This document shows positions 1 through 7,756 of a stretch of DNA of 32,000 bases, one piece after another (within the stretch, counting starts at the first letter, position 1; each line of letters begins with the position of its first letter). Made by a program: the position numbers and the translations under genes. The notes under the pieces were generated by a model. It did no database searches. It was not told the DNA's origin and worked only from the letters and a program-made list of their open reading frames with translations. Source of the stretch: Candidatus Nitrosopumilus koreensis AR1 (GTDB taxonomy: Archaea; Thermoproteota; Nitrososphaeria; Nitrososphaerales; Nitrosopumilaceae); contig NC_018655.1 of NCBI RefSeq assembly GCF_000299365.1, forward strand, positions 120,001-152,000, read 5' to 3'.

Positions 1-1383
1 GGGGAAAATATTCTGATAAAGGATAATCGAGGTGCAATTTTAGATAACAAACTGTTTGGATATGAATCGGATTCTGGTGCAAATAGAATATTTGGACAAG
101 TTGTAATTAATGATTGGAAAAAACTTTACAGATTAGAAAAAGGAAAAATTCTAACTGATCAACGTGAAGGGCTAGATTATAATCACAAATTCAACAAACT
201 TTTAGAACAGATAATCAGAACACACCTAAAACCGATTATTGATGCTGAGAAAGAAAAACAAGGCAGTAATCCTAGGCTTGAACAAGGCTTAGACAAGAAT
301 ATCAAAAAAGCATTTGCGTTTATCAACAAAATTATGATGAAGGATCCTGATGCGGGAACTCATGAAGAAGAACTTCCTGATGTGCCCCCAGAAGGAATTG
401 AATTTTCAAAACCATCATTAACAATTCCATTTGAAAAAACAAAAAAACTCAAATTATTGTTAAATCCCGGTAGAGTTCCAACTAATTCTGAAATTGCATT
501 ACGAGTATTTGGTGAGGCAATCACAATAAGTCCTGAAAATTCCATTAGTGCTCCTGGAACATATGACGTAGATGTCCCATATGTGGAAATTGAAATTACA
601 GGAAAGAAGTTAAACGCAAGAAGTACTCTAAAGGCCTATTTTGGGGAAATGGTGGCAGAAACAGAAATTTTTGTTGTGCCAGAACAATTTTTCCAGCCAA
701 AACATGGTTTTGCATTTAAGCCCTCCAAAGCCAATTTGATTCCAAAAAAATCGCGAAAAATTAAACTTGTCATAGATACAAATCTTGTAGATCCGGGCAC
801 ACCAATAGAGATCTCTTGTGATGATGAGAGAGTTGAATTTTCACCCAAAAAACTTACTGTTACAAATCCTCCAAATCTTGGCAAATATCTCACCGAAGAA
901 ATAATAGAAATTTCATGTAGTAAACTGGGATTAAAGGCAAAGTTAGTTGCTGAAACAAAGACGAATGCAGGTGAAGACAGACAAGCAATATGTGAACTAG
1001 AAGTTAAAGAAAAAGAGCCTCCAAAACAATTTTTCAAAGACTATGAACTAGATCCTAAAGGAGAAAAAAGAGTTCGTTCAAGATTCAAAGATGGAATTAT
1101 CTATGTTCACGTAAATGCTCCTATTTTGTTATTCACTTTTGGTAGAAATCAAAAGAATCTCAGAGATAAGAAAGCAGAGGCCATCTTTATGTTGGCAGAT
1201 ACAGTTGTTCAGAGAATGGCAATGGAATGGGCAACATGGAAGGCCGATAATAATAAACTCGATATACTATCTGATAGAGCTACAGAAATTCAAGTTGAGA
1301 AAAACAGTATTGAATACGAATACGGTCTTCAAATTCATCAAATGATAGTTCAAGGATTTACAAAAAAACTAGAGGATCTTTAA
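1..1383 (+). CDS. C-terminal 460 aa of a large protein starting upstream of the window; MORC/paraMORC-like transducer segment followed by tandem beta-sandwich-like repeats
   Basis: Frame 1 is open from base 1 (GENILIKDNRGAILDNKLFGYESDSGANRIFGQVVINDW..TDQREGLDYNHKFNKLLEQII) and is continuous with the track ORF 334..1383, so the Met at 334 is internal. The N-terminal visible segment resembles the S5-like region that follows the GHKL ATPase in MORC proteins. This is a comparison from memory, not a search. Repeated motif: EFSKPSLTIPFEKTKKLKLLLNP / FAFKPSKANLIPKKSRKIKLVIDTN / VEFSPKKLTVTNPP. Confidence 0.6.
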   Translation, partial: GENILIKDNRGAILDNKLFGYESDSGANRIFGQVVINDWKKLYRLEKGKILTDQREGLDYNHKFNKLLEQIIRTHLKPIIDAEKEKQGSNPRLEQGLDKNIKKAFAFINKIMMKDPDAGTHEEELPDVPPEGIEFSKPSLTIPFEKTKKLKLLLNPGRVPTNSEIALRVFGEAITISPENSISAPGTYDVDVPYVEIEITGKKLNARSTLKAYFGEMVAETEIFVVPEQFFQPKHGFAFKPSKANLIPKKSRKIKLVIDTNLVDPGTPIEISCDDERVEFSPKKLTVTNPPNLGKYLTEEIIEISCSKLGLKAKLVAETKTNAGEDRQAICELEVKEKEPPKQFFKDYELDPKGEKRVRSRFKDGIIYVHVNAPILLFTFGRNQKNLRDKKAEAIFMLADTVVQRMAMEWATWKADNNKLDILSDRATEIQVEKNSIEYEYGLQIHQMIVQGFTKKLEDL

Positions 1384-1400
1384 TCGGTAAGGAATAAAAA

Positions 1401-1802
1401 ATGGATGCCAATCAAAAAGATTCTGCATTCCATATTGACATTAGTGATTTAGAGGAAATTGAAAAGAAAGAAAGAAAAAGAAAATACATCAATGAATATC
1501 AAAGAAAATATGCCAAAAGATCATATGTAAAAGATAAACTAAGCAAACAAAAACAAAACAAAACACTAACTGAAAAAATTAAGAAACTAGGAACAGAAGA
1601 TCCACATAGGATTTGTAAAAAATTGGGACGTACTAGAGCATACGGACGACGACATCCAGAATACTTTTACCGATGCTCAAAATGTGATGTGTCTTATTCA
1701 GATAAAGAAAAAGAGCATTTCTATAAAGAAAACAAATGCCCATGTTGCCATTTGATGTTAAGACAAAGGAAAACTGTTACTCAAAAGAAAAGTCTCAATT
1801 AA
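1401..1802 (+). CDS. Highly basic zinc-ribbon protein, 133 aa
   Basis: The ATG lies 18 nt after the upstream stop, suggesting an operon. The N-terminal half is Lys/Arg-rich. The C-terminal half carries CSKC..(18 aa)..CPCC, a four-Cys zinc-ribbon pattern. Confidence 0.6.
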   Translation: MDANQKDSAFHIDISDLEEIEKKERKRKYINEYQRKYAKRSYVKDKLSKQKQNKTLTEKIKKLGTEDPHRICKKLGRTRAYGRRHPEYFYRCSKCDVSYSDKEKEHFYKENKCPCCHLMLRQRKTVTQKKSLN

Positions 1803-1909
1803 AGATCTAGTTATAAGTAACATTCAAAAATATGATATTCATACTTAGAGGCATACTAATAAGAATAGTTTGTAGATACACCTGCAGGAGGAGCCTCATC
1901 TCAAAATAA

Positions 1910-2386
1910 TTAGAATCGAACACTTCCTTGTTCATCAAAATCAAGATTAGAATTTATCTTTGCAATTATAGCTGAAATCAATACCAGAACTACACCTACA
2001 TAAAATATCTCAGGTATCCAATCAAGTGTAATTCTAAAGATAAGAATTATCCAACCTATGAAACCAGTTATAGATACAAACAATCCAATTATGCCAAGTC
2101 GAAAAATTGCATATAGCAAAACAATGAGTTCAAGAATTCCAGCAATGGCTGAAACAGGTTGGAATACATTAGCCCAAAACCATATCAGAGTCTCATTTCC
2201 AAGTGATTTGATTAGTTCCCCAAGAAAGATTTCATTTATTGTAGCAGGATCGATATCATGTCCAAATTGTACAATCACATAAAGTGAAATTGCAGAGAAC
2301 AAACTAAACAAAAAAACTTTATACGGATCATCGAGTTCTTTTATCCATTCAATAAACTCTACAATAGAAGGTTCACGTTTACTCAT
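1910..2386 (-). CDS. Integral membrane protein, about 4 TM helices, 158 aa
   Basis: Hydrophobic segments: VFLFSLFSAISLYVIVQF, LIWFWANVFQPVSAIAGILELIVLLYAIF, LGIIGLFVSITGFIGWIILIF and IFYVGVVLVLISAIIA. It is the last gene of the co-directional minus-strand cassette. Confidence 0.6.
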   Translation of the reverse strand: MSKREPSIVEFIEWIKELDDPYKVFLFSLFSAISLYVIVQFGHDIDPATINEIFLGELIKSLGNETLIWFWANVFQPVSAIAGILELIVLLYAIFRLGIIGLFVSITGFIGWIILIFRITLDWIPEIFYVGVVLVLISAIIAKINSNLDFDEQGSVRF

Positions 2387-2467
2387 ATTGAAACAGCATA
2401 TGTTAAGATAAGAGGTTCATAAATGATTCCAACCTGTTAGTCTTGCAGTAGAGAAAGAATTTGAAAA

Positions 2468-2896
2468 TTATTTAGATTTTTTTAGTTGATCAACATCTTT
2501 TCTCAATTGAGTAAAATCATGGTTTAATTTTTCATATTTTTTGTCATTTTCTTCATTAGTAACAAATTGATTATAGAATAACAATATTGAACTTCCGGTC
2601 CCCCATGCAACAAAAAATAATGAAAGAATTAATTCCACAGCAGTTTGGCTTTGAGAGAGTGCCCACATTCCCATAGGCGTGACAACAAGACTAATCATTA
2701 ACATCTTATAGAGATTTTTCTTTTCTGTTCTTTTGTACCAGGAAATCCCATCTTGTAACCCCAACGGATTATTATAATATCCTGGATGGTTTGCAGGAAA
2801 AATCTTCATGTAAAAATTATCAAATGAATGTAAGGCTTTTGAGAGTTTTAGTTTAATTTCAAATTTATGTTTTTTTGGAGTTGTGATGGCACTCAT
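2468..2896 (-). CDS. 2-TM protein with a C-terminal coiled-coil tail, 142 aa; architecture reminiscent of SLATT-type 2-TM effectors
   Basis: A soluble N-terminus of about 60 aa ends in ISWYKRTEKKNLY. Two hydrophobic helices follow (MLMISLVVTPMGMWAL and AVELILSLFFVAWGTGSSILLFY), then EENDKKYEKLNHDFTQLRKDVDQLKKSK. It lies immediately downstream of the cyclase-like gene. Confidence 0.55.
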   Translation of the reverse strand: MSAITTPKKHKFEIKLKLSKALHSFDNFYMKIFPANHPGYYNNPLGLQDGISWYKRTEKKNLYKMLMISLVVTPMGMWALSQSQTAVELILSLFFVAWGTGSSILLFYNQFVTNEENDKKYEKLNHDFTQLRKDVDQLKKSK

Positions 2897-2992
2897 GTTA
2901 TTCTATTAGTAAAACTAATTTTTAATGTTTATTGCAATAAAAATTGAATCAAATCTTTTACTCTTAGTTGGTAATGATGATATGTAGAAAAT

Positions 2993-3781
2993 TTAGTTAT
3001 TATTTTGAATATGTTCAACAAATGCTAATGTATTACGTATTTTCAGGGTAGGTTCAATTCCAGGATTTTCATTTAGTTGTGCTTGAAGTATTTGATTGAC
3101 ATTTTTAGAGGAGTCAACCTTATGCCAGATATTATTTTCATCCGTAATTTCGCCCATAGATCTATGAGTATTCATTATTCCCTCATACGATTTGATAAAA
3201 TTAATCCCATAACCGTTTTTTTCAGTTAACCCTTTCAAGGGAACATCATATGGTGTAATGTACACGTTTTCATTGTAATCTTCATTATCTGCAGATAAAC
3301 TTGCATTTCTAGAAGCAATAATATTTGCAGATGGTGCTAATGAAACACCAATCCATTGGGATTGTTCATAGTATTCTGCAGCTTCAAACATAATCTTTCC
3401 TGTAAGTGCTCTATCATTTTCATAATAATCCCCATACGCAATACAACCACGAAATGGAATATTGAGACATAGTCCTAATGCCAGTAAATAGGATGCAGCA
3501 CTTGAAGCAAATTTTAGCAACACATGATCACCCCAATCCTGGGTTTTGAGTGGAATTTCAGGATCAGGTGAAAAAGACATCAGAACAGTATCGGAAAATG
3601 ATCTAATTTTCATCAACATTCCGACCTCTTTTGCAGTGTCTGCATTTTTTTCCATGAATTGCAGAATTTGTTCCCATTCATTGAATAGGAAATTCTCTTG
3701 ATCTTTATTCCATCTAGCTTTTGTTCCTAAAGCATCCAGTAGAACTATTGCTCCTCTTTTCATAGATTGTACAGCAGACAT
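2993..3781 (-). CDS. Palm-domain nucleotide-cyclase-like protein (class III cyclase / GGDEF superfamily pattern), 262 aa
   Basis: Motifs occur in the same order as in class III cyclases. AIVLLDALGTK (D16) matches the beta1 metal-binding Asp. KIRSFSDTVLMSF (D64) matches the second metal Asp and the RxGGDEF position. IPFRGCIAYGDYY matches lRiGihtG. GKIMFEAAEYYEQSQWIGVSLAPS matches the GdtVNlAaRle...i.vs helix-strand. The canonical Asn/Arg pair in that helix is absent. Confidence 0.45.
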   Translation of the reverse strand: MSAVQSMKRGAIVLLDALGTKARWNKDQENFLFNEWEQILQFMEKNADTAKEVGMLMKIRSFSDTVLMSFSPDPEIPLKTQDWGDHVLLKFASSAASYLLALGLCLNIPFRGCIAYGDYYENDRALTGKIMFEAAEYYEQSQWIGVSLAPSANIIASRNASLSADNEDYNENVYITPYDVPLKGLTEKNGYGINFIKSYEGIMNTHRSMGEITDENNIWHKVDSSKNVNQILQAQLNENPGIEPTLKIRNTLAFVEHIQNNN

Positions 3782-3871
3782 ACAAAATACAATGAAAAAT
3801 GACTATTTATTTTGAATTCTTATAAAATCAAGATATATTTCTGATGAAACCTTTTACTCTTGCAGTCTAAA

Positions 3872-4468
3872 CTATCTTAATTTCGGAATGCTTCTGAAGT
3901 AATACTTGGAGGTGTCTTTAGATAAACAACATACAGCCTTTTCAATTGGTGTGAATTCCTTCTTTTTCTCAATAAAATAATACATGTATGTTAGTAAAGC
4001 CCTATGAACTCCGTCCATTAACATGAATGGACCTTCTGGGGATGTCCCACCAATCATCCAAGAATATCGTCGTGCAATTTCAGGATCATATTCTTGGAGA
4101 GTGGACTTCATCCAATCCATTCCTTTAGAAAAGTTAGAAAAATGGTTTTTATCATATTCAGAATTCCAGTTTTGTTGTTCAGAATTGGGTAGCCAAACAA
4201 AATCTGCAGAATGGAGAAGTTTTGCATAATGTGACAGTTGTGTTATGTCCGAGTCAAACAATGACCAACCATATCTTTTACCATAAGGACCAATTTTGTC
4301 ATTGTAATAGATATGTAGATTGTTTTCAAAATCAGATTCATTCAGAGTAACATAAAAGAATCTGACTTCATTTCCCAGATTGTTGAAAACAGATTGTTTT
4401 GAGAATTTTGGATCATAATCTACCTGAAATGCTTGTTCTCTAGAAATTTCCTCCAGAAAATGGGGCAT
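3872..4468 (-). CDS. Hypothetical protein with a ParB/sulfiredoxin-like DGxHR motif, 198 aa
   Basis: The C-terminal segment EGPFMLMDGVHRALLTYMYY matches the ..y.l.DGhHRl.A.. core of ParB-like nuclease/NTPase domains. The rest is unrecognised. It is the first gene downstream of the integrase, on the same strand. Confidence 0.4.
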   Translation of the reverse strand: MPHFLEEISREQAFQVDYDPKFSKQSVFNNLGNEVRFFYVTLNESDFENNLHIYYNDKIGPYGKRYGWSLFDSDITQLSHYAKLLHSADFVWLPNSEQQNWNSEYDKNHFSNFSKGMDWMKSTLQEYDPEIARRYSWMIGGTSPEGPFMLMDGVHRALLTYMYYFIEKKKEFTPIEKAVCCLSKDTSKYYFRSIPKLR

Positions 4469-4583
4469 ACAAAATCATAATTTTAGACATTATTTTCATT
4501 ATCGGTCAAATGGCGACTACTTGTTATCCTCTCTAACAACGTGTTCCTAATCAAATTTGAACCAAATGTTCGTTCTGAATAAA

Positions 4584-5801
4584 TTATTGAATGATTTCTA
4601 AGACTTTTTCAGGTGGAATTTGACCATAACTCTTCTTTAACTCATCTATAGTATGCCAGCCTCCCACCTCTGCAATGATTCCATAGTTGTAATTGGTTTT
4701 AGACAACCAATAATGAGCACCCAAATGTCGCAGAACATGTGAAGGACGAGTTAGAAAATATGTTTCATTTTTTCCTAAATCTTGAAAAATTTCAACGAGT
4801 TGTCGATTGATGGTTTTTTTGAAAGCATGTTCTGCAAGTGATGACTCGACAATTCTATCGCAGTTTCTATCTTTTAATAATTTCAAACTTTTTTGAGTAT
4901 CTTCTCTTGTAATGTACTTTATCCATTTTCCTCCACGGATATTTTCAGTCTTTGATTCAATCACAGACATAAGAAATATGGTGTCATCATGTTTTGTTTT
5001 TAGTTCTGTCCAATCATTTTTCATGTTGTACAGAGCACCAAATCGTGCACAAGATTCGATTCCAACCCAGAACCACCTGTATACATCTGAATCTAAACCC
5101 CATTTTTCCTTGATGAACTTGTCTGCTGCATCAAACTCTTCTTGTGTGAATCTAATGTCTGCATATTTTCCATGATGGGGAACTTTTTGAGACATTACTC
5201 CTGAAACACCTTTTCTCCAGGTAATATCGTAAAACGAACAAAAGTCTCTTACTGCTTGTGCTTTGTGGTAGACGGTAGTATTCTTTCCGGTAGGTTTGCA
5301 TCCACGATTAGAGCATACAACATCACCGTTTTGGAAATGCTTTGCAAACGTTCTCATGATTTTTTCAGTTTTCTTTGCAGAGATTGTCAGATCATAGGGA
5401 GTTACCTTGCAGGTATTGCAAACAATCTCAAGGGAGCGTAGTCTGTTTCTCCAGGACTTTAGTGGCATTCCTTGCTTTCTTGTCAGCATGTCATCCATCC
5501 ATTCAGAGACAAGGGGGTCAGATGTGATGGAATGGTGTTTGTTGAACTCCCGGAACTCTTGGTCTTTTGATTTTGGCAAAAAGAAATGGCCTGACCTTAG
5601 GCGGACCATCTCTCCTCTCTGCGATAATAACTTGATGTAATTGTAGACGGACTGTCTGGCGATTCCAAGTGCCTTTGCAATCTCTGGTGGCTTTAGCGGG
5701 TAGGGCCTGTTTCCCTTGGCGTAAAGCAATCTATGGATTTCCTCTAGAATGTCATCTTGTGATGCTTTCTTGCCGTAGAGGGTTATCTTTCGACGTGCCA
5801 T
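4584..5801 (-). CDS. Tyrosine recombinase / phage-type integrase with an N-terminal wHTH, 405 aa
   Basis: N-terminal HTH: PEIAKALGIARQSVYNYIKLLSQRGE. Catalytic-domain signature: CARFGALYNM (Arg box), SHVLRHLGAHYW (HxxR), GGWHT, and KKSYGQ (Tyr nucleophile) near the C-terminus. Confidence 0.85.
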   Translation of the reverse strand: MARRKITLYGKKASQDDILEEIHRLLYAKGNRPYPLKPPEIAKALGIARQSVYNYIKLLSQRGEMVRLRSGHFFLPKSKDQEFREFNKHHSITSDPLVSEWMDDMLTRKQGMPLKSWRNRLRSLEIVCNTCKVTPYDLTISAKKTEKIMRTFAKHFQNGDVVCSNRGCKPTGKNTTVYHKAQAVRDFCSFYDITWRKGVSGVMSQKVPHHGKYADIRFTQEEFDAADKFIKEKWGLDSDVYRWFWVGIESCARFGALYNMKNDWTELKTKHDDTIFLMSVIESKTENIRGGKWIKYITREDTQKSLKLLKDRNCDRIVESSLAEHAFKKTINRQLVEIFQDLGKNETYFLTRPSHVLRHLGAHYWLSKTNYNYGIIAEVGGWHTIDELKKSYGQIPPEKVLEIIQ

Positions 5802-5946
5802 TACTCTGCAGGCAAGTCTCGAAAAAATTTTTGAAAGCGGAAACTATGGGATGTTTGTGCAATTAGCATTAATCTAATTGGACAAACTTCATGTTTTTAA
5901 AATTAAATGCAAATATACCCGGATGACTAATAATATTGGACAAACC

Positions 5947-5966
5947 TTTAGGGGTTAACCCCTAAA
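5947..5966. repeat. 20-bp perfect palindrome TTTAGGGGTTAACCCCTAAA
   Basis: Read directly; the sequence equals its own reverse complement. It is flanked upstream by two copies of ATTGGACAAAC (5877..5887 and 5934..5944). It lies in the 430-bp non-coding region upstream of the integrase. Confidence 0.9.
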
Positions 5967-6233
5967 AAAACAAACAATGTTAAAATAATTTTTAATTATT
6001 TTAGACTATTTTAGAAACAGGCATTCAAGAATAAAATTCCGTCCAACTAAATTTTCTCTATCAAAATTTCATCTTAGCAGATTTCCTATCTTGTCAAACC
6101 AAAACTACCTAGAGCCACTCAAGACATGAAATACTATGAAAACATCTAGAATGATAACAAAGACAAACAAAAGAATGTGGCAGTCAGATGACTTTGCATT
6201 GTACTGTTTTTGATTAAAATATTTTCTTGCTGC

Positions 6234-6473
6234 CTAGATTTCCTTAATCTCTGTAATGGTCCCTTGAACAGAATCCATCTTGATTATTGCCTTTTTCTCG
6301 CCCCAACCTAATGCAACATACCAGTCTCCTGCATCTTCATGATACTTTGTTTCCAGAGTTTGAATGGTATCTGGTGCAGCGTTGTATTTTTTTGCAATGC
6401 CTGATACTGCAAGGGCTATTGCATCCTTTTCTTTTTCCAACCTTCTCTTCATTAATCCAATTCCAGGACTCAT
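6234..6473 (-). CDS. Small hypothetical protein, 79 aa
   Basis: An ORF with non-repetitive, plausible composition. No recognisable motif. Confidence 0.5.
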   Translation of the reverse strand: MSPGIGLMKRRLEKEKDAIALAVSGIAKKYNAAPDTIQTLETKYHEDAGDWYVALGWGEKKAIIKMDSVQGTITEIKEI

Positions 6474-6590
6474 GGAGTAACTAGATCATGTCATCTAATA
6501 TAGTTAATTCATAATATTGGCCATAATGTCGAATTTTTCTAATTGACACTTACAATATTTCAAATAACCCAATTACGTTATAGGAATAAA

Positions 6591-7184
6591 ATGAAACTAA
6601 CTCAAAGACTTTCAAACTCTGCAATAGCAAAATCAGGCACGCTTGTTTCGCTAGTTTCTATTTTCTCTATGGTTGGTCCAATCATAATTGTTTCAGCAGG
6701 ATTCTGGGATGCAATTTCCCATATTCTAAAAGAACCAGAGTTCTTTTGGAGCCCTTCTCACATTGTAGTCTACTCTGGTGTCTCGATGACTGCCTGTGCT
6801 GCAATTATGGGAAGCATACTGATAATCCGAAAATCGGTTCATCGTTCTCTTAAAACTGGAATCAAACTGGTAATTGTTGGCTCCCTTCTACAGATTGTTT
6901 CAGGCTTTGGCGATTCTCTGTCCCATGATCTTTTTGGAATTGATGGATTAATCTCCTGGTCCCACCAACCTCTGGAGATAGGACTTTTACTTGCATCATT
7001 AGGTGCAGTTTTGATTTTAAAAAATAGAGAACATACAAAACTCAAAATATTTCTTCCATTCTCTATAGTAACGTTTTTGTTTTTTACTACTTGGCTGATT
7101 TTTAATTTTGTATTGATTTTTGGGCATACCATTCAATGTATTCAGATCTATGAGATATTCTCTTCAGGTTGCTCAATACTATAG
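6591..7184 (+). CDS. Integral membrane protein, about 5-6 TM helices
   Basis: I prefer the ATG at 6591 (MKLTQRLSN...) over the track's TTG at 6543. Several hydrophobic helices, with His-containing loops (WDAISH, DSLSHD, SWSHQP). Confidence 0.6.
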   Translation: MKLTQRLSNSAIAKSGTLVSLVSIFSMVGPIIIVSAGFWDAISHILKEPEFFWSPSHIVVYSGVSMTACAAIMGSILIIRKSVHRSLKTGIKLVIVGSLLQIVSGFGDSLSHDLFGIDGLISWSHQPLEIGLLLASLGAVLILKNREHTKLKIFLPFSIVTFLFFTTWLIFNFVLIFGHTIQCIQIYEIFSSGCSIL

Positions 7185-7639
7185 TTTTTAATTTTGAAAA
7201 ATGAAATAATCAACATTACGATGGCACCAACAAAAATCATTAGCCCTGATGGCACCATTTCCTGAGAATTTGTATCCCCCAATTCTATCTGCACATAAAT
7301 TGAATTTTTTGCAATGTTGGTAATTTTTATGGTATGTTTGCCGTCCTCTTTAAAATCAAAATATCCTACTGACATTTTTGTTTGAACCATTTGTTCTTGA
7401 ATCACGTTGTCTCTGGGATCTAGTATCTGAACAAATACCTCCTCTCCTGAGAATTCAGGTATGTATAATTTGAAATATCCAATACCCATACCAAAAAATT
7501 CTGACTCTGTCTCAAATGAATTAGATTGTTTTAGTACAATTGAATCGTATTTTTTTTCAGTCTCATCAAAAACATACGCTGTCCAAATCATTCCTACAAT
7601 TACCAATGCTAATCCAAGTTTGAATGGAGATATTCTCAT
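7148..7639 (-). CDS. Membrane-anchored protein with N- and C-terminal TM helices and a beta-rich middle, 163 aa
   Basis: N-terminal FKLGLALVIVGMIWTAYVF and C-terminal LMIFVGAIVMLIISFF helices. Its 3' end overlaps the convergent gene by 37 nt. Confidence 0.55.
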   Translation of the reverse strand: MRISPFKLGLALVIVGMIWTAYVFDETEKKYDSIVLKQSNSFETESEFFGMGIGYFKLYIPEFSGEEVFVQILDPRDNVIQEQMVQTKMSVGYFDFKEDGKHTIKITNIAKNSIYVQIELGDTNSQEMVPSGLMIFVGAIVMLIISFFKIKNYSIEQPEENIS

Positions 7640-7682
7640 TTCATCATGCAGAGAAATTATTTGCTTAATAAGATAATCTAAA

Positions 7683-7756
7683 GGGCTCGGAGGGCTTCGA
7701 TCCCTCGACCTGGCGGTTCGAAGCCGCCCGCACTATCCAGGCTGTGCAACGAGTCC
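7683..7756 (-). tRNA. tRNA-Arg (anticodon UCG)
   Basis: The reverse complement folds as a cloverleaf: GGACTCG TT GCAC AGCCTGGATA GTGC G GGCGG CTTCGAA CCGCC AGGTC GAGGG ATCGAAG CCCTC CGAGCCC. The anticodon loop CU-UCG-AA gives UCG. There is one A3.C70 acceptor mismatch, A at position 54, and no encoded CCA. Confidence 0.8.

Follow-up and report, generated by a model that had tools for sequence, protein, structure and literature searches.

A predicted class III cyclase-fold protein carried by the thaumarchaeal element NitKor-E1 belongs to a large family without an annotation model

Palm- and cyclase-fold enzymes underlie immune signalling in type III CRISPR, Pycsar and Panoptes systems. We analysed a 32-kb stretch of the Candidatus Nitrosopumilus koreensis AR1 genome (hereafter the window; all coordinates count from its position 1), in which four co-directional genes follow the tyrosine integrase of the integrated element NitKor-E1. 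A first-pass annotation of this DNA had read these genes as a nucleotide-signalling cassette of the abortive-infection type, in which a cyclase-like palm protein, the 262-amino-acid (aa) product of NKOR_00650, would act through small transmembrane (TM) partners. The locus thus raises two questions: whether NKOR_00650 encodes a cyclase-type enzyme, and whether its neighbours are the effectors of this enzyme. Our data answer them differently. The palm fold of the cyclase type stood up to structure comparison and residue conservation, and the cassette of palm protein and TM effectors did not, as the genes occur independently of each other. NKOR_00650 is probably a stand-alone, active nucleotidyltransferase of the class III palm fold that is carried as mobile-element cargo. 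The structural inference drawn from the raw sequence was therefore correct, and it leads to a large unannotated family with a predicted cyclase fold.

Predicted fold, active site and family of NKOR_00650

To gain insights into the architecture of NKOR_00650, we employed an AlphaFold2 model computed from a nine-sequence alignment (pLDDT 82.9, pTM 0.85). The elements of the model follow the order β-α-α-β-β-α-β-α-β-α-β-β and continue into a helical C-terminal segment, which matches the class III palm topology (i.e., β1-α1-α2-β2-β3-α3-β4-α4-β5-α5-β6-β7). A Foldseek search of the PDB with this model returned 74 matches at E ≤ 1e-3, and the best 50 of these are all class III adenylyl or guanylyl cyclase (AC/GC) domains, in line with the class III cyclase/GGDEF-type palm that had been predicted for the protein. 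The best match is soluble guanylyl cyclase (sGC; 4ni2_B) with E = 3e-6; the 50 matches have a probability of 1.00, and the target-normalised TM-scores are about 0.6. Among the viral structures of BFVD, a single match passed E ≤ 1e-3, namely a giant-virus ‘response regulator’ (E = 1.3e-5), followed by a giant-virus protein with a guanylate cyclase domain (E = 2e-3). Thus, the model supports a class III-type fold for NKOR_00650.

At the sequence level, the 262-aa protein matched no model of Pfam (including PF00211), NCBIfam, PADLOC or PHROG at E ≤ 1, and among the PDB sequences neither the protein nor the family profile found a match. Comparison of the family profile with the catalytic domain of the sGC alpha subunit (identical to 4ni2_A) by hhalign gave a non-significant probability of 0.4%. 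The sole alignment to 4ni2_A, which is likewise non-significant, places LLDALGTK over LFSDIVGFT, with D16 on the Asp of DIVGFT. Of the similarity to cyclase palm domains, the structural part was therefore confirmed by Foldseek, and the profile part was missing in Pfam, in the PDB sequences and in hhalign. As there is no profile similarity to real cyclases despite the fold, NKOR_00650 and its relatives form a separate family of the class III fold and are not members of PF00211 or of the curated class III.

The motifs VLLDALGTK, RSFSDTVLMSF, FRGCIAYGD and GKIMFEAAEYYEQSQWIGVSL are all present in the 262-aa product, and they fall on the invariant columns of the family. Across 148 and 40 diverse family members, D16, D64, G112, G117 and G145 are invariant, so that the β1 Asp and the second Asp singled out as hallmarks at first pass are borne out by the family. 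Near-invariant are G10, L18, G19, K21, F62, S63, T65, R111, G128 and E133, and furthermore A134, W143, P150, S151, P181, K183, K247, N250, T251 and F254. In the model, D16 ends the strand formed by residues 6-17, while D64 lies between the strands 55-62 and 65-72. The two residues would thereby occupy the end of β1 and the β2-β3 hairpin, the canonical places of the two metal-binding Asp residues. R111 (within FRGC) and K183 (within the PLK hairpin) are located at what we take to be the positions of the class III phosphate-binding Arg and Lys. We regard D16 and D64 as putative metal-binding and K21, R111 and K183 as putative phosphate-binding residues.

Two features set the family apart from canonical cyclases. 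The Asn/Arg transition-state pair of helix α4 was not found, as judged from the motif register and not from a superposed structure, and a conserved D/E-A-A is present instead. Here, the family consensus following G128 reads P-A-I-D-E-A-A-x-Y-Y and NKOR_00650 reads K-I-M-F-E-A-A-E-Y-Y; the lack of the canonical pair had already been recognised in the single sequence. Moreover, a family-specific helical extension of ~65 aa forms the C-terminus of NKOR_00650 and harbours the conserved motif K247-x-x-N250-T251-x-x-F254.

A word-index search recovered only 9 relatives of NKOR_00650, and an exhaustive profile search was then employed. It yielded 4,445, 1,521 and 139 cluster representatives at E ≤ 1e-3, 1e-10 and 1e-30, respectively, where the weakest of the 4,445 representatives could include other palm proteins. 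The family is found in Nitrosopumilus, Nitrosarchaeum, Nitrososphaeraceae, Bathyarchaeota, Thermoplasmata and many bacterial phyla. We found no prior description of it in the literature searched, and papers beyond that may hold one.

Most commonly, the cyclase-like domain stands alone. Other members carry N-terminal fusions to an Mrr_N winged helix, to a REC domain or to a degenerate tyrosine-recombinase-like domain. In at least eight representatives, the cyclase-like domain is fused to an unannotated N-terminal domain of ~300-350 aa, which is conserved and soluble and has no Pfam match (carriers: P0092, P0095, P0108, P0114, P0117, P0122, P0124 and P0126; L099:6001-7803). This domain may be a new sensor domain. 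Furthermore, a PF21648-like domain is fused to the cyclase-like domain at locus L017 (4299-5003), and a PF21648-like protein of ~215-220 aa is encoded by a separate upstream gene with tight translational coupling at L015/L048, L059 and L071 and on the Bacillus plasmids L092 and L093. The partner protein matches PDB entry 3fy6, an ‘integron cassette protein’, with E = 4e-8. Fusion and operon coupling to the cyclase-like enzyme thus constitute a Rosetta-stone link, which provides the first functional context for the structural-genomics orphan 3fy6/PF21648.

Neighbouring genes occur independently of NKOR_00650

We then turn to the two genes for TM proteins and to the 198-aa protein encoded beside NKOR_00650. 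The 142-aa product of NKOR_00645 contains WYKR...Y, followed by hydrophobic segments at residues ~62-80 and 89-108 and a charged tail, and the 158-aa product of the next gene has about four hydrophobic segments. Both architectures agree with the earlier description of a WY.R...Y pre-helix with two TM segments and a 4-TM protein that follows. The proposed kinship of the 2-TM protein with SLATT-type pore effectors found no support: neither TM protein matched a SLATT, S-2TMbeta, cyclic nucleoside monophosphate (cNMP)-binding, SAVED or CARF model of Pfam or PADLOC at E ≤ 1. The best Pfam matches of the two proteins, DUF2663 (19.6 bits versus a cutoff of 25.2) and DUF5676, are both non-significant. 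This agrees with the first-pass annotation in that no cNMP-binding, SAVED or CARF domain was visible to it and in that it assigned the proteins to no named defence family; likewise, none of the four proteins gave a significant match to a model of Pfam, NCBIfam, PADLOC or PHROG. Both TM proteins are too small for a known nucleotide-sensor domain.

NKOR_00645 found only itself among 5.8 billion sequences in a word-indexed search, a method that may overlook small TM proteins that have diverged strongly. The 158-aa protein matched no family of Pfam, PADLOC, NCBIfam or PHROG and had no relative in the viral contigs, plasmids and loci that were fetched. For the 198-aa product of NKOR_00655, two homologues were obtained, with 79% and 71% identity, and the contigs that carry them (L088-L091) contain no cyclase-like gene. 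On the 33-kb contig L088, the 79% homologue resides in a different integrase-bearing element (114-5876) whose other genes are unrelated, which shows cargo shuffling among thaumarchaeal integrated elements. An AlphaFold2 model of the 198-aa protein, computed from 3 sequences, was unusable (pLDDT 41). Its LMDGVHRAL motif may mark a ParB/Srx-like fold, and Pfam returned no ParB match. We also considered the protein as a divergent PF21648-like partner and rejected this assignment at an hhalign probability of 0.2%.

The gene neighbourhoods of the family were compared across 87 loci from genomes and metagenomes, which represent 67 independent groups and rest on approximate in-house calls of open reading frames (ORFs). 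At the locus of the nearest cyclase-like homologue (P0002, locus L002; 70% identity), all three neighbours are missing. Clade-specific cases apart, BLAST clustering revealed no recurrent partner of the cyclase-like gene across the 67 locus groups, and the four genes of the window were never found together in the other loci fetched. Among the independent loci, 39 are flanked by 600 bp or more on each side; in 22 of these, the cyclase-like gene has no neighbour in the same direction within 150 bp, and in only nine does such a neighbour lie downstream. Two of these nine neighbours are multi-TM proteins, which does not differ significantly from the background of 9.4%. A small multi-TM gene is located tightly downstream at L015/L048 (at -1 bp) and at L028 (overlapping). 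That the TM neighbours at L015/L048, L028 and L056 represent one hidden family was rejected, as phmmer returned self-matches only at E ≤ 10; they are also unrelated to the TM proteins of the window.

As the genes occur independently, a multi-gene abortive-infection cassette is not supported. The claim of a signalling cassette of three to four genes falls with the ORFan nature of the 2-TM protein, with the homologues of the 198-aa protein on contigs devoid of a cyclase-like gene and with locus L002. We conclude that the cyclase-like gene and the TM genes stand side by side in the window by chance, as cargo, and that the genes for the 198-aa, 2-TM and 4-TM proteins are unrelated, element-specific cargo and not effectors of NKOR_00650.

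The sole hint of a local functional link among these genes is a motif of ~18 nt, AAGAGTAAAAG(G/A)TTT(C/G)AT, which matches twice in the 32 kb versus 0.08 matches expected (positions of the copies in Table 1). At L002, where it was also sought, the motif is absent. It may serve the NitKor-E1 cargo genes as a common operator or promoter element. Because the genes are separated by gaps of 81-96 bp and the motif recurs in promoter-proximal position, the arrangement suggests separate promoters, which may be co-regulated, and not an operon.

The assignment of the locus to NitKor-E1 relies on its integrase and its att site. Krupovic et al. 2019 (PMC6563490), in the excerpted text, describe NitKor-E1 as a 15.4-kb cryptic integrated element of the N. 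koreensis genome with the att sequence CCCTTGAAC, an intragenic target and a gene content of TerS/TerL, VapBC, a PD-(D/E)XK nuclease and a tyrosine integrase; a cyclase-like gene is not mentioned in this excerpt. The att sequence has one exact match in the window, and no att repeats were found within the window. The position of this site identifies the stretch up to and including it as the integrase end of NitKor-E1 and the four genes as its cargo, so that their proposed location on a thaumarchaeal mobile element is confirmed. Since the att site falls within the 3′-terminal part of a 79-aa ORF, the integration target of NitKor-E1 is a small protein-coding gene rather than the tRNA-Arg located nearby (7682-7756). 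From the integrase to the gene of the 158-aa protein, the intergenic gaps are 115, 90, 96 and 81 bp, and the coordinates, strand and spacing (~80-115 bp) first reported for the array were exact. NCBI annotation exists under NKOR_00645, NKOR_00650 and NKOR_00655 for three of the four genes, and the 262-aa sequence is exactly that of NKOR_00650.

Two observations concern other proteins of the element. Residues 119-227 of the integrase match the Pfam model zf-DNA_Pol (DNA polymerase alpha zinc finger) with E = 2.7e-7 and 30.9 bits versus a cutoff of 25.7; such a match is unexpected in a recombinase, and a Cys-rich insertion may account for it. The 133-aa cargo protein contains a C-terminal CxxC...CPCC zinc-ribbon-like motif and weakly matches the PADLOC model PDC-S13 (E = 0.003).

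Table 1 Features of the NitKor-E1 locus in the window and PF21648-like genes at other loci (locus name before the position).
Feature	Position	Strand	Description
Integrase-proximal part of NitKor-E1	1..6269		the element extends past the left end of the window
349-aa NitKor-E1 cargo protein	334-1383	plus	convergent with the four-gene array; no family match
133-aa NitKor-E1 cargo protein	1401-1802	plus	Lys-rich; convergent with the four-gene array
158-aa protein	1910..2386	minus	~4 TM segments
Motif, weaker third copy	~2430-2450	minus	4 mismatches; upstream of the 158-aa gene
NKOR_00645	2468..2896	minus	142 aa, 2-TM ORFan with charged C-terminal tail
Motif, copy 2: AAGAGTAAAAGATTTGAT	2948..2965	minus	52-69 nt upstream of the 142-aa gene
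NKOR_00650	2993..3781	minus	262 aa, predicted class III-cyclase-fold (palm) protein, stand-alone
Motif, copy 1: AAGAGTAAAAGGTTTCAT	3844..3861	minus	63-80 nt upstream of the 262-aa gene
NKOR_00655	3872..4468	minus	198 aa, soluble, function not assigned
Helix-turn-helix (HTH) and tyrosine integrase of NitKor-E1	4584..5801	minus	405 aa; PHROG integrase E = 3.5e-5, HTH matches
79-aa ORF	6234..6473	minus	att target gene; att inside its 3′ end
att site CCCTTGAAC	6261..6269	plus	right border of NitKor-E1; exact match to the published att sequence
PF21648-like gene	L015:4309-4956		
PF21648-like gene	L092:4328-4993		
PF21648-like gene	L093:4311-4964		
PF21648-like gene	L059:994-1377		
PF21648-like gene	L071:4156-4593		

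Genomic contexts and possible roles of the family

Beyond the window, the cyclase-like gene occurs in a range of mobile and defence-related settings. In one type of context, it adjoins DndB/C/D-like genes and a homologue of PD-Lambda-5_A. A gene for a TIR protein is located before or after it at L003 and L081, and TIR neighbours are also present at L006 and in the L025 group. In this group, a protein of ~1,118 aa with AAA_16 (STAND-like), TPR and C-terminal TIR domains is encoded convergently at a distance of 5-22 bp (L009:5732-9094, L025:841-4197 and related loci, derived from a Bathyarchaeota metagenome-assembled genome and several related metagenome contigs); its gene resembles defence genes of the Avs/NLR-like type. 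Two Mrr_N-fused members reside in islands with Dcm/Vsr/HATPase/TIR and Dcm/Vsr/helicase/PLD genes. A member on the B. thuringiensis plasmid pMC319 has a complete Septu system on one side (PtuA, E = 6e-132; PtuB, E = 4e-97) and an OLD-family nuclease on the other. Members directly downstream of an integrase were found at L003 and L013, and the integrase of L003 is homologous to that of the window.

On the viral contigs L095-97, the gene is an isolated moron on the opposite strand, with the tape-measure gene on one side and two DNA methyltransferase genes on the other, and on viral contig L094 it lies just upstream of TerS/TerL/portal; none of the INPHARED phage genomes contains it. The methyltransferase genes beside the moron of L096 are two tandem paralogs (5730-7324, minus strand). 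Taken together, the settings on mobile elements, as prophage morons and in defence islands speak for a possible role in conflict between hosts and parasites, with housekeeping contexts as a substantial minority.

How might such a protein work? As an enzyme of this fold, NKOR_00650 would be a metal-dependent nucleotidyltransferase that uses nucleoside triphosphates (NTPs), and it would probably be dimeric as other class III-fold enzymes are. Two divalent cations would be held by D16 and D64, and the triphosphate by K21, R111 and K183. With D/E-A-A in place of the Asn/Arg pair and a conserved K..NT helix as an extra element, the enzyme may yield a product other than an ordinary 3′,5′-cNMP. The invariant Asp/Asp/Arg/Lys centre, the alternative N-terminal modules and the mobility as a single gene together point to a regulated enzymatic output domain. 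The gene would move as a self-contained unit among mobile elements, prophages, plasmids and defence islands, and the varied N-terminal sensor and DNA-binding modules of its relatives are as one would expect for a regulated output enzyme. As most genomes lack a dedicated adjacent effector, the output would be read by something encoded elsewhere, or the reaction itself would act, by consuming NTPs or by making a toxic nucleotide.

A further-reaching proposal, which we put forward tentatively and consider possible rather than likely, is that the family constitutes a widespread single-gene immune or conflict module of archaea, bacteria and mobile elements, with non-canonical chemistry and, in relatives, with coupling to DNA-sensing (Mrr_N, recombinase-like) or other sensor domains. 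Here, a nucleotide product or NTP consumption would block invaders without a dedicated adjacent effector.

Several points weigh against an active, conflict-related nucleotidyltransferase. The fold link to cyclases rests on one model built from nine sequences, without similarity at the sequence level, and with the Asn/Arg pair of canonical cyclases missing, the domain could be inactive or chemically different. Catalysis is something we infer, and a signalling enzyme without an identifiable receptor is an incomplete mechanism. Moreover, many members are found in housekeeping settings (a thiamine pyrophosphate enzyme, citrate synthase, oxidoreductases, a Cdv/carbamoyl phosphate synthetase locus), given which a defence role for the family is neither general nor proven. 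The mobile and defence contexts were read locus by locus.

These points lend some weight to other explanations. The missing transition-state pair would be explained by a dead palm that serves as a nucleotide- or nucleic-acid-binding sensor or scaffold, or as an anti-defence protein that binds or diverts immune nucleotides of the host, and its carriage by mobile elements and phages and the lack of an effector partner would fit such a protein. We consider this very unlikely, since the Asp pair, R111 and K183 are essentially invariant at 22-36% identity, which is hard to explain without catalysis, and since a domain fused to Mrr_N or REC looks like a regulated output and not like a sponge. The same REC and other sensor-type fusions, which are typical of signalling output domains, would also suit a second-messenger synthase outside conflict, i.e. 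a divergent analogue of cyclases and GGDEF proteins that employs host-encoded receptors and is sometimes located on mobile elements. The many members in housekeeping neighbourhoods and the absence of a fixed effector agree with this idea. However, prophage morons, the Septu/OLD plasmid, neighbours of the TIR, Dnd and restriction-modification types and Mrr_N fusions recur, and the distribution is patchy, with near-identical genomic contexts that lack the gene. A role of this kind is therefore unlikely, albeit less so than a dead palm.

The cassette of the first-pass annotation would operate by an infection-triggered nucleotide signal, to which the 2-TM and/or 4-TM proteins encoded next to the cyclase-like gene would respond by opening or becoming active, with abortive infection as the result, following the logic of Pycsar, CBASS and Panoptes. 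It draws on the adjacency and common orientation of the genes, on the motif shared by the 262-aa and 142-aa genes and, more weakly, by the 158-aa gene, and on the few other loci (L015/L048 and L028) with a small multi-TM gene coupled downstream. Furthermore, L003 encodes its TIR protein at the same position, as predicted for effector swapping, and Panoptes sets the precedent of a minimal palm cyclase and a 2-TM effector as a complete system (PMC12657230). We nonetheless judge the cassette to be quite improbable. The 142-aa protein is an ORFan, and the closest homologue at 70% identity has neither the neighbours nor the motif. The TM neighbours of other loci are mutually unrelated and not significantly more frequent downstream than in the background, and neither TM protein of the window has a detectable ligand-binding, SLATT, S-2TMbeta or cNMP-binding match. 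Finally, the gaps and the repeated promoter-proximal motif suggest separate transcription units. A stand-alone nucleotidyltransferase carried as cargo is thus the reading that we retain.

Comparison with known systems

The element itself has been described: the integrase, the att site and the cargo genes of the window are all part of NitKor-E1 as presented in the excerpted text of PMC6563490. As for the defence systems built on nucleotide signals, an identity with CBASS is rejected, because NKOR_00650 has a predicted class III palm rather than the Pol-beta fold of CD-NTases and because PADLOC gave no CBASS match. Panoptes, which consists of the minimal Cas10-type cyclase mCpol and a 2TM-beta effector (PMC12657230), is the known system nearest to the cassette idea, as it also places a small palm cyclase beside a small 2-TM protein. 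It differs in that the best fold matches of the 262-aa protein are class III domains and not Cas10 or mCpol, and in that the 142-aa protein has no beta-rich sensor domain. With no Pfam match to mCpol or S_2TMBeta, and with the 142-aa protein being an ORFan, we also reject this identity.

Pycsar (PycC with PycTM or PycTIR) likewise employs a cyclase of the class III fold against phages, and TM or TIR genes are found beside some members of our family (the window, L015, L003 and L081). Pycsar effectors carry a cNMP-binding domain, however, whereas none is present in the 142-aa protein, the 158-aa protein or the TIR protein of L003. Moreover, the partner genes are not conserved in our family, where most members stand alone. 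PADLOC PycC matched neither the 262-aa protein nor the Bacillus homologue at E ≤ 1. In the absence of both a PycC match and an effector with a cNMP-binding domain, the system is not Pycsar.

The GGDEF and Cas10 palms belong to the same superfamily and have the two-metal Asp arrangement in common with NKOR_00650, and GGDEF is also an output domain that is combined with many N-terminal sensors, including REC. Their hairpin motif reads GG(D/E)EF or GGDD, whereas the hairpin of our family reads F-S-D-T. The 262-aa protein has no match to PF00990, and GGDEF and Cas10 domains are absent among the 50 best structural matches.

The closest comparison is with the class III AC/GC domain (PF00211; e.g. 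sGC 4ni2, Ma1120 and CyaC), with which the model of NKOR_00650 shares the palm fold and the order of its elements. Also shared are the Asp at the end of β1, the Asp of the hairpin, the Arg that starts β4 (mRiG; FRGC here) and the Lys of the C-terminal hairpin. Unlike class III cyclases, the family has no profile similarity to them, carries D/E-A-A in place of Asn/Arg and contains the additional K..NT helical segment, and no conserved counterpart of the base-specifying Lys/Asp or Glu/Cys pair is evident. Thus, the family that we define comprises thousands of sequence clusters; it has an intact two-Asp centre and an altered catalytic helix, and it lacks an annotation model and a fixed effector. 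If the family is active, microbial conflict biology would gain a new nucleotide-producing enzyme, which would be among the few such candidates in ammonia-oxidising archaea. If the family indeed acts as a single-gene conflict module, it would stand for a mode that is not represented among the known cyclase-based defences.

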